Origin: a virus
Strand: one strand, 5' to 3'
Virus record (IMG/VR): IMGVR_UViG_3300005563_000033
Coordinates: 13,353 to 77,352 of that record
Length of the DNA: 64,000 bases
Position numbers and translations under genes: made by a program. A model generated the notes under the pieces. It saw only the letters and a list, made by a program, of their open reading frames with translations, was not told where the DNA came from and made no database searches. Of the stretch, positions 11,868-64,000 are shown one piece after another. The stretch's first letter is position 1. Each line of letters opens with the position of its first letter.

Positions 11868-12179
11868 TTGTATATGAAAAGTAGTTTAATAAAGTTGTTT
11901 CCTTGGTGTCTTTCGCTTTGTTTTTTGTGCTGGGCAGTTTGGAGTAATTTGGAATTGAACAAGACTGGCCTTATATTATTTTATGTAGAACAGTATAATG
12001 ATCGTATTCAGCATAAATATGACTCTGTAGTTAAGGTGAATGAACGAATAATTAGCCTTAACCCCTTGCATTTAGAAATAGGTTCAGCAGGGCCAAATAG
12101 AGTAATATCAGGGGACAATGATATACTAGTGCTGCAAGGAGGTAACGAAAATTCATCAGTCATTAAAATTAAAAAATAA
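11868..12179 (+). CDS. membrane-anchored hypothetical protein
   Basis: N-terminal hydrophobic segment. Confidence 0.5.
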   Translation: MYMKSSLIKLFPWCLSLCFLCWAVWSNLELNKTGLILFYVEQYNDRIQHKYDSVVKVNERIISLNPLHLEIGSAGPNRVISGDNDILVLQGGNENSSVIKIKK

Positions 12180-12182
12180 ATC

Positions 12183-12599
12183 ATGATTTCAACAACAACA
12201 AAACGTTCAGGATGTATTCCCTCAATGGTCTTTATTATGGGTATTGTAATTTGTATTTACGCTTGCAATGGCAGTAAAGCACCAGAAGTTAAAGCGCAAA
12301 CTAATCTTTGCAATATAGCTACTACTCCACGTGGTAATGACTCAGGATGGACTCTACTCAAGGCAGAGTATACGGTAGGTAAGAAATGGGCTTATGGAGA
12401 CTCGATTAAAAGCGAGGGCCAGTTTAAAATGGATACCATATCTTGGAGAGTATTTATTTTAGACACCGCTAGAGATGCAAAAGGTAAACCCATCTATGAT
12501 TCTACTCTTAAAAGATGGAAACCGGGTGGATACTGGGTAGAACTAACCGAAGCCCAAAAACAAGCAAATCTTATTCATATACTACCTAAATCTAAATAA
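12183..12599 (+). CDS. putative lipoprotein
   Basis: VFIMGIVICIYAC lipobox-like; DSI, DTI, DTA, DST sequons. Confidence 0.55.
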   Translation: MISTTTKRSGCIPSMVFIMGIVICIYACNGSKAPEVKAQTNLCNIATTPRGNDSGWTLLKAEYTVGKKWAYGDSIKSEGQFKMDTISWRVFILDTARDAKGKPIYDSTLKRWKPGGYWVELTEAQKQANLIHILPKSK

Positions 12600-63117: not shown

Positions 63118-63327
63118 TTAGCATGTTTTAGCAGATTGACGCACAATGAAATTGCGTTCGAAATAAATAACTATTTTAAAGTCAGCAGTGCCTCTTTTGA
63201 GTCTATTGTATAATGCTGGCTCTTTAATTCCGTGTAAGTCGGCATAATCTTTTACTAGCATTGCGCCGGGGGGCAATACATCAACTATTGGATATTTCCC
63301 TTCATTTCGTTTCATTCTGATTAACAT
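63118..63327 (-). CDS. HTH DNA-binding protein
   Basis: VKDYADLHGIKEPALYNRLKRG. Confidence 0.6.
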   Translation of the reverse strand: MLIRMKRNEGKYPIVDVLPPGAMLVKDYADLHGIKEPALYNRLKRGTADFKIVIYFERNFIVRQSAKTC

Positions 63328-63673
63328 TTTTAGCGTAATCTTTTAACCATTGCGGCATATTGCCCATTTGCGCAGCGTTCCCCCAATTACGTACAATCTT
63401 ATAAATAAGGTTAATTTCTGGGTGTTCTGGGCTATCAGCTACATGAGCGCGTAATGGGGTTACGATTTGATTCTTGAAATCTATAAACGCCCCAACTAAA
63501 AGTTTTTCGTAGGTGGCCTTAAAAGTTGATTTATTATAACGTTCACCTGCGAAATATTTATTGTACTGAAGCTCAATAAAATCTCTTATGTATTGCTCTT
63601 CTAATTGCTCTGTTTTTAGATCATTGTACATCTCATGCATTTCTGGCAATTGATTGTAATATGCATCATTCAT
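63302..63673 (-). CDS. hypothetical protein
   Basis: 123 aa downstream of the tRNA-like elements. Confidence 0.55.
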   Translation of the reverse strand: MNDAYYNQLPEMHEMYNDLKTEQLEEQYIRDFIELQYNKYFAGERYNKSTFKATYEKLLVGAFIDFKNQIVTPLRAHVADSPEHPEINLIYKIVRNWGNAAQMGNMPQWLKDYAKNVNQNETK

Positions 63674-63685
63674 GATATAATATTT

Positions 63686-63757
63686 TGGACTGGCTTAAGG
63701 ATTCGAACCTCTTCGTTCCTGGAACTTTACCATGTGGCAGATATCATGCCGCCAATC
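63686..63757 (-). ncRNA. degenerate tRNA-like element
   Basis: GATTGGC/GCCAGTC acceptor-like stem, GGTTCGAATCC T loop, non-canonical D and anticodon arms. Confidence 0.4.
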
Positions 63758-63766
63758 ATTTATAAA

Positions 63767-63927
63767 TGCCCTGCATGGATTCGAACCATGATAACTAATC
63801 TATCGCATATTTTCCGGGGATCAATCCATAGCATTTGCGAACCAATTAGCTGTCCTTCCCGGCTCAATGGGATTATGTATTATGCCCAACAACTTGGCCT
63901 TCGCTGGCCTGCTTAGACGACAGAACA
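63767..63927 (-). ncRNA. tRNA-shaped RNA with expanded D loop and anticodon arm (161 nt)
   Basis: acceptor TGTTCTG/CAGGGCA, D stem GTCT/GGAC, stem GCTAATT/GATTAGT, perfect T arm CATGG-TTCGAAT-CCATG. Confidence 0.6.
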
Positions 63928-64000
63928 ATGCAAATATAAGCAATGATTCACAATTCACCAAACTATTTATTTCAGTAGCTTCATCCCCCCCTCCCCCCCC

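Follow-up and report, generated by a model that had tools for sequence, protein, structure and literature searches.

The minus strand of a stretch of viral DNA carries, at positions 63767–63927, a 161-nt element that is, by its sequence, a tRNA-Gln gene with two clean inserts in its loops and no anticodon. The stretch (the window, 64,000 nt in all) comprises bases 13353–77352 of a linear 77,352-base IMG/VR virus contig, and the element was delimited by sequence reading, alignment and in-silico excision. We take it to be a real, unusual singleton among the tRNA-derived and tRNA-like genes of phages, with a putative function only. A non-decoding mimic of tRNA-Gln, or a scaffold built from one, is the explanation we favour, tentatively and at rather less than an even chance; that the gene is simply dead, a reading absent from the preliminary description of this DNA, is nearly as likely.

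Read on the minus strand, the element is a complete cloverleaf frame interrupted twice. Its 5′ part (63911–63927) consists of the acceptor 5′ strand TGTTCTG, U8-C9, the D-stem strand GTCT and the start of the D loop, AAGC. A 50-nt D-loop insert follows (63861–63910), lying between C17 and G18 as aligned, and then the D-loop end GGGAA (candidate G18, G19 ... A21), the D-stem 3′ strand GGAC and A26 (63851–63860). An extended 'anticodon' arm, GCTAA-TT/GA-TTAGT, encloses a 43-nt insert (63794–63850 for the arm as a whole), and the frame is closed by a 3-nt variable loop, TAT, the T arm CATGG-TTCGAAT-CCATG and the acceptor 3′ strand CAGGGCA (63767–63793). The two acceptor strands (63927–63921 and 63773–63767) form 7 bp, including two G.U pairs, and are directly abutted by a T arm of 5 bp with a TTCRANY loop, as in a tRNA. 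All four stems of the frame pair and both inserts are placed exactly in loops. The tertiary core, too, retains its nucleotides (U8, A14/A15, GG...A21, A26, U33 and G37-A38), along with the U1:A72 acceptor pair, the 4-bp D stem and a perfect T arm.

Departures from a tRNA occur in the D loop, the anticodon arm and the 3′ end. The D stem and the nucleotides at the ends of the D loop are present; the loop itself measures 59 nt, against 7–11 nt in tRNAs. The anticodon-stem strands stand 47 nt apart, and no 7-nt loop occurs anywhere in the element. At the 3′ end, TTTATAAAT follows directly and CCA is not encoded. Every stem and junction segment listed in the preliminary description is found at these positions, and its account of a greatly extended D loop and anticodon arm, a missing 7-nt anticodon loop and an unencoded CCA agrees with the sequence in each respect.

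The frame can be assigned more sharply than the 'tRNA-shaped' of that description, since it is that of a bacterial-type tRNA-Gln. Its last 21 nt, GGTTCGAATCCATGCAGGGCA, are identical to the 3′ ends of tRNA-Gln genes in 27 species or reference genomes, which belong to CPR and other bacteria, not Bacteroidota; where the genomic context was checked, it was the 3′ end of a tRNA-Gln(UUG/CUG). Set side by side with the reference tRNA-Gln L099:1975-2046, the element is identical at 13 of its first 15 nt, the two C>T differences keeping G.U pairs; it has GGACA, U33 and G37-A38 (loop CTTTGGA) in common with it; and its 3′ 24 nt match, with two changes that turn wobble pairs into Watson–Crick pairs. The four stem differences from the closest tRNA-Gln (C3>U, C4>U, U49>C and G50>A) are all pairing-neutral, and outside the anticodon stem the frame is about 90% identical to a real tRNA-Gln. 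Joined together, AAGC and GGGAA would make the normal 9-nt D loop of tRNA-Gln, so that the D-loop insert is, as aligned, exactly 50 nt long with its boundary at C17/G18. The body as a whole (U1:A72, Gln-type D arm and T arm) has the Gln isotype, and the ten best matches of the excised frame among 582 distinct tRNAs, a set partly biased by the fetching of loci, are all tRNA-Gln.

The resemblance of the element to a tRNA is more than chance. Shuffled sequence readily supplies a 7-bp acceptor partner within 320 nt (14–30 matches) and the minimum free energy of the whole element is not unusual (z = −0.75), so the tRNA origin had to rest on other evidence. This is provided by the rarity of GGTTCGAATCC, whose only two occurrences in 64 kb both fall in this region, 78 nt apart, by the 21-nt identity to tRNA-Gln and by the behaviour of the frame on excision: when both inserts are cut out in silico, all 238 of the boundary variants that result are called as tRNAs by ARAGORN with its default settings. 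Their anticodons read AUA, GUA, GGA or GGU, in no case that of Gln. Likewise, in the intact element the UUG triplet is not in place and there is no YUG anticodon at 34–36. As read from its sequence, the element is unable to decode: the 7-nt anticodon loop and a Gln anticodon are both missing.

Intact, the element escapes the standard tools, as had been predicted. ARAGORN at default settings finds no tRNA gene anywhere on the contig, window included; its intron, mitochondrial and tmRNA modes make no call for the intact element, and only thresholds of 70–80% give calls, which are poor and overlap one another. Rfam at gathering score has no match in the window (the threshold of the tRNA model, RF00005, is 29 bits), and at E≤10 the last 700 nt give nothing relevant: no tRNA, tmRNA, Y RNA, ribozyme or riboswitch. 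The earlier picture of a tRNA shape with two large insertions, invisible to finders and outside any Rfam family, therefore stands; of the two interpretations offered with it, the tRNA mimic is possible and the unusual introns are disfavoured, as set out below.

Each insert can be drawn with two helices. The D-loop insert contains the hairpins GGCC-A GCGA A-GGCC, with a GNRA-like loop, and TGGG-13 nt-CCCA. The anticodon insert (43 nt, 63801–63843) lies between U33 and G37 and contains TCGCA/TGCGA and an apical GGA-TTGA-TCC; the latter replaces the GGAT/ATCC helix first proposed, which would leave a 2-nt loop. Folded alone, the inserts are no more stable than shuffled sequence, and there is no endonuclease ORF or trace of a ribozyme core in them. 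The D-loop insert is unique: neither the phage nor its relatives repeat it, and JGI metagenomes yielded no match to a 22-mer taken from it.

Several other origins and roles were considered for these sequences and rejected. For a repeat or duplication origin of the inserts no source was found in the phage or its relatives. A CRISPR repeat mimic in the D-loop insert is disfavoured by the absence of the 22-mer from metagenomes, a weak test. As for an antisense target, the best complement in the phage, of 12 nt, is no better than chance and falls within an ORF but on the wrong strand. Protein coding is also discounted: a 93-aa ORF on the plus strand (63635–63916), antisense to both tRNA-like elements of this region, has an implausible composition, being rich in I, C and W and non-protein-like. 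This ORF is probably an artefact that could mislead automated gene annotation.

No homologue of the element was found. Twenty-three TerL-related contigs were fetched whole (1.03 Mb in total) and searched with blastn and with a covariance model (R1) derived from the one sequence of the element; neither detected a homologue, nor did blastn against INPHARED phages. An exact 24-mer of the element is absent from IMG/VR, and no homologue was returned by three gapped frame patterns in IMG/VR or by a frame pattern in JGI metagenomes, in searches that may have left out records very close to the window. A look-alike in one relative (G011, 12077–12201) is a chance match inside coding sequence. With no homologue of the element or of either insert, nothing shows selection on the inserts. 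Ordinary tRNAs occur in three of the relatives, Ala and Met in G001 and Asp and Gln in G009/G022. None of these is in the syntenic place, and synteny with the relatives does not extend beyond about 58.3 kb of the window.

The element lies about 75 nt from the end of the contig, for which CheckV estimates a completeness of 67%. The last 16 nt of the contig are all C but for one T (window 63985–64000, plus strand), probably an artefact of sequencing or assembly. The phage encodes terminase, portal and primase-helicase genes. Its cultured TerL relatives, at 23–27% identity, are only phages of Flavobacterium, Cellulophaga and Maribacter; because all of these infect Flavobacteriia, the host is probably a member of the Bacteroidota and the phage probably of Flavobacteriia type.

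Directly upstream of the element is a promoter-like box, TTTG-N20-TATATTTG (63931–63962, minus strand), of the Bacteroidota −33/−7 type (consensus form TTTG-N20-TAnnTTTG), which ends 3 nt before the element. We take it to fit the Bacteroides −33/−7 consensus, in which case it would presumably place the transcription start near the 5′ end of the acceptor stem. Across the window such motifs show no enrichment (7 observed versus 3.4 expected), and as a promoter the box is suggestive only.

Nine nucleotides downstream of the element lies a second, degenerate tRNA-like element of 70 nt with four arms (63688–63757, minus strand). Its segments are, in order, GATTGGC, GGCA-TGATATC-TGCC, A, CATGG-TAAAGTT-CCAGG, AACGA, AGAGG-TTCGAAT-CCTTA, A and GCCAGTC. 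The acceptor has 7 bp and a D-like hairpin is stacked directly on it; U8/N9, G18G19 and U33 are missing, and two stems carry A.G and A.A mismatches. The anticodon-like hairpin has the loop TAAAGTT, with A at position 33, and the T arm, which has an A.A mismatch, has the same T loop as element 1. Neither ARAGORN nor Rfam calls element 2, no isotype match stands out and a search of IMG/VR with its 3′ end found no homologue. In the closest relative, G001, a 'tRNA-Ala(TGC)' (L039:13918-13994) has an unusual acceptor and D arm; its T arm, TAAGG-TTCGAAT-CCTTA, is shared with element 2 of the window.

Beyond element 2 a leftward run of six small orphan ORFs begins. The first, of 123 aa (63302–63673, minus strand), has its ATG 14 nt after element 2, giving the layout promoter-like box, element 1, 9 nt, element 2, 14-nt A/U-rich leader and ATG. 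No terminator was found between the tRNA-like elements and the ORFs. No relatives were found for the neighbouring proteins, and the 123-aa protein of the adjoining ORF (P0001) is present in identical form on four contigs, the longest of the other three measuring 77,528 b.

In the mimic or scaffold reading that we favour, transcription from the box 3 nt upstream would begin with element 1, which would lead an operon of small orphan genes running leftward. Folded, the transcript would resemble the L of a tRNA to which two arms have been added, and RNase P, RNase Z and the CCA-adding enzyme, which read the acceptor/T half only, could trim and stabilize it. The product would be a tRNA look-alike that might act in either of two ways: its tRNA body may be a scaffold presenting the two inserted modules, or the RNA may compete for a host factor, or act as its decoy, where that factor recognizes the body of tRNA-Gln rather than its anticodon, a tRNA-directed defence or processing enzyme being the candidate. 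Processing of the 3′ ends of the tandem elements would leave the short A/U-rich leader on the downstream mRNA as a by-product. The fuller version of this proposal is a natural 'tRNA scaffold', a tRNA-Gln converted by the phage either into an early-expressed body mimic that binds or misleads a host factor or into a stable carrier of inserted modules, and it is rather unlikely. The flawless frame, the placing of both inserts in loops, the position at the head of an operon, the promoter-like box and the existence of insert-bearing phage tRNAs elsewhere all argue for a function; the lack of homologues, the lack of excess structure, the degenerate element 2 and the unenriched promoter motif argue against one.

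The main rival is a dead tRNA-Gln gene, a possible if doubtful reading in which two insertions (for example, scars of internally deleted mobile inserts) have knocked out the gene and left it, beside a second decayed tRNA, as a functionless relic in the 5′ leader of an early operon. The anticodon is gone; element 2 next to it has lost U8, G18G19 and U33 and pairs imperfectly in its stems, which suggests a decaying tRNA cluster; and the ordinary tRNAs of G001 and G009/G022 indicate that tRNA gain and loss are ongoing in the group. Element and inserts are, moreover, unique and without excess structure. What a dead gene accounts for poorly is a frame without any decay, its stems all paired and its conserved tertiary nucleotides complete. 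Both inserts sit in loops, with no endonuclease ORF or ribozyme core left behind in them, and useless DNA is usually deleted from phage genomes, a point we count against this reading.

The arrangement of promoter, element 1, element 2, leader and ATG can also be seen as no more than a cis-acting processing signal. The tRNA-like folds would then be RNase P/RNase Z punctuation that sets the 5′ end of an early mRNA, and the excised RNAs would have no role. It is in keeping with this that what both elements preserve well is the acceptor/T half alone and that no terminator precedes the ORFs. Such a signal leaves the intact D stem, the core nucleotides and 93 nt of extra sequence in element 1 unexplained, however, and there is no conserved example among the relatives; we consider it improbable.

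The unusual introns of the preliminary description, that is, a decoding tRNA from which both inserts are removed after transcription, fare worse still and are highly improbable. Their positions in the D loop and the anticodon loop do match those of archaeal multi-intron tRNAs, in-silico excision does give a tRNA accepted by ARAGORN, and ARAGORN -i predicts 'introns' of about 50 nt in other viral tRNA genes. The tRNA type is nevertheless bacterial (U1:A72) and the host probably one of the Bacteroidota. A loose script, run without a positive control, finds 0 BHB-like motifs in the element against a mean of 3.4 in shuffles, 95% of which contain one. The 67%-complete contig has no tRNA-intron endonuclease, RtcB or Rnl1, the search for Rnl1 having had no positive control; in the control for the splicing-endonuclease search, matches came only from archaea, and to our knowledge bacteria generally lack EndA. 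The inserts, at 43–50 nt, fall far short of a group I intron, and Rfam gives no intron or ribozyme match; the ribozyme core of a group I intron in a tRNA usually exceeds 200 nt and lies in the anticodon loop. Finally, the excision anticodons AUA, GUA, GGA and GGU sit on a Gln body and are never those of Gln.

An attachment site that preserves just the 3′ end of a host tRNA-Gln, its 5′ pairing being coincidental, would account for the 21-mer identical to cellular tRNA-Gln genes and draws on the ease with which a 7-bp partner arises within 320 nt. Yet it is effectively refuted by the 5′ half, where tRNA-Gln is matched too, at the 5′ 15 nt and at GGACA, which makes the gene complete rather than a 3′ fragment. 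No integrase is encoded in the contig, and the genomes that match the 21-mer are of CPR and other bacteria, not Bacteroidota.

If the element is functional, phages would rebuild tRNA genes into non-decoding RNAs by adding modules at two loop positions tolerated by the L fold, much as engineers do in the 'tRNA scaffold' design, and an anticodon-less case would join the growing set of extra-arm phage tRNAs missed by finders and Rfam. If it is a pseudogene, it would be a snapshot of the death of a phage tRNA gene and a caution against calling every tRNA-shaped sequence a mimic. Either way, the tRNA content of this phage is under-called, and the two tRNA-derived elements belong in the annotation.

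Conserved, covarying phage tRNA genes with structured inserts exist. One set that we observed, family A2, comprises at least 15 distinct tRNA-like genes of about 120 nt within large tRNA arrays on contigs, often very large ones, from uncultured viruses (L144:5781-5897, L149:2038-2157 on the minus strand, L153:1616-1732, L154:7185-7306, L157:7046-7167 and 10 more). These genes have a normal acceptor, D arm and T arm and an encoded NCCA. Their insert, of about 45 conserved nt including a covarying hairpin, lies in the 5′ side of the anticodon stem, with CTTAT repeated at both of its edges, and is followed by a hairpin with the 7-nt loop AT-NNN-AA, whose triplets are GTC, TCG, TCT, GTT and GCC. 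Eight covarying pairs fall in the acceptor, the T stem and the inserted hairpin (one set inside the hairpin). There is no consistent BHB motif in the family, and no match to it in INPHARED phages. Rfam tRNA scores are 34–56 bits for the three genes checked (L153, L129 and L155), and one A2 member scores 47 bits.

Other unusual viral tRNA genes were also seen. L170:2400-2474 is a tRNA with a hairpin of about 20 nt in the D loop; L129:14498-14620 (= L142) and L131:4585-4691 on the minus strand (= L141) have inserts of about 50 nt in the anticodon loop. L132:6922-7044 (= L135) contains two tandem tRNA-likes with 4-bp/5-nt 'anticodon' hairpins, and L128:8771-8917 starts with a Gln-type 5′ half and continues into a D-loop-like insert of 52 nt whose junctions are irregular.

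The element resembles A2, L170 and L129/L142 in having extra helical modules in the D loop or in the anticodon/variable region, and they too come from uncultured phages and are poorly handled by tRNA finders. In contrast to it, these insert-bearing tRNAs have an anticodon-type loop of 7 nt, many covarying homologues and usually CCA, and they stand in large tRNA arrays; the element has two inserts, no anticodon loop, no homologue and no insert sequence in common with them. With canonical bacterial and phage tRNA-Gln (RF00005) it shares U1:A72, U8, GTCT/GGAC, AAGC..GGGAA, A26, U33, G37-A38, the T arm and the 3′ acceptor strand. It differs in the 50 nt extra in the D loop, the 43 nt that stand for the anticodon triplet and the 3-nt variable loop, and is scored neither by the Rfam tRNA model nor by ARAGORN at default settings.

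Like tmRNA (RF00023), the element has a tRNA-like acceptor/T-arm domain around a large internal insertion. Its 3:70 pair is U.G and not G.U, however, it has a true D stem and it is 161 nt long, well below typical tmRNAs; ARAGORN in tmRNA mode, even relaxed, and Rfam are both negative. A frame GCA AAU GCU AUG GAU UGA occurs by coincidence in the anticodon insert, and its tag 'ANAMD' is unlike known degradation tags. Archaeal multi-intron pre-tRNAs likewise combine short D-loop and anticodon-loop inserts within a single gene; unlike these BHB-containing precursors, the element has no BHB, is of bacterial tRNA type with a probable bacterial host, and the contig has no endonuclease or ligase genes.

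Stable RNAs linked to tRNAs do occur naturally, among them the species 1 and 2 RNAs of phage T4 and the tRNA-like domain of the bacterial YrlA Y RNAs. YrlA has no sequence or Rfam match to the element and its topology is the opposite, its ends lying in the 'anticodon' helix. There is a parallel in design with engineered 'tRNA scaffold' RNAs, which embody the same idea: a tRNA body that processes and stabilizes a cargo RNA placed in its anticodon arm.
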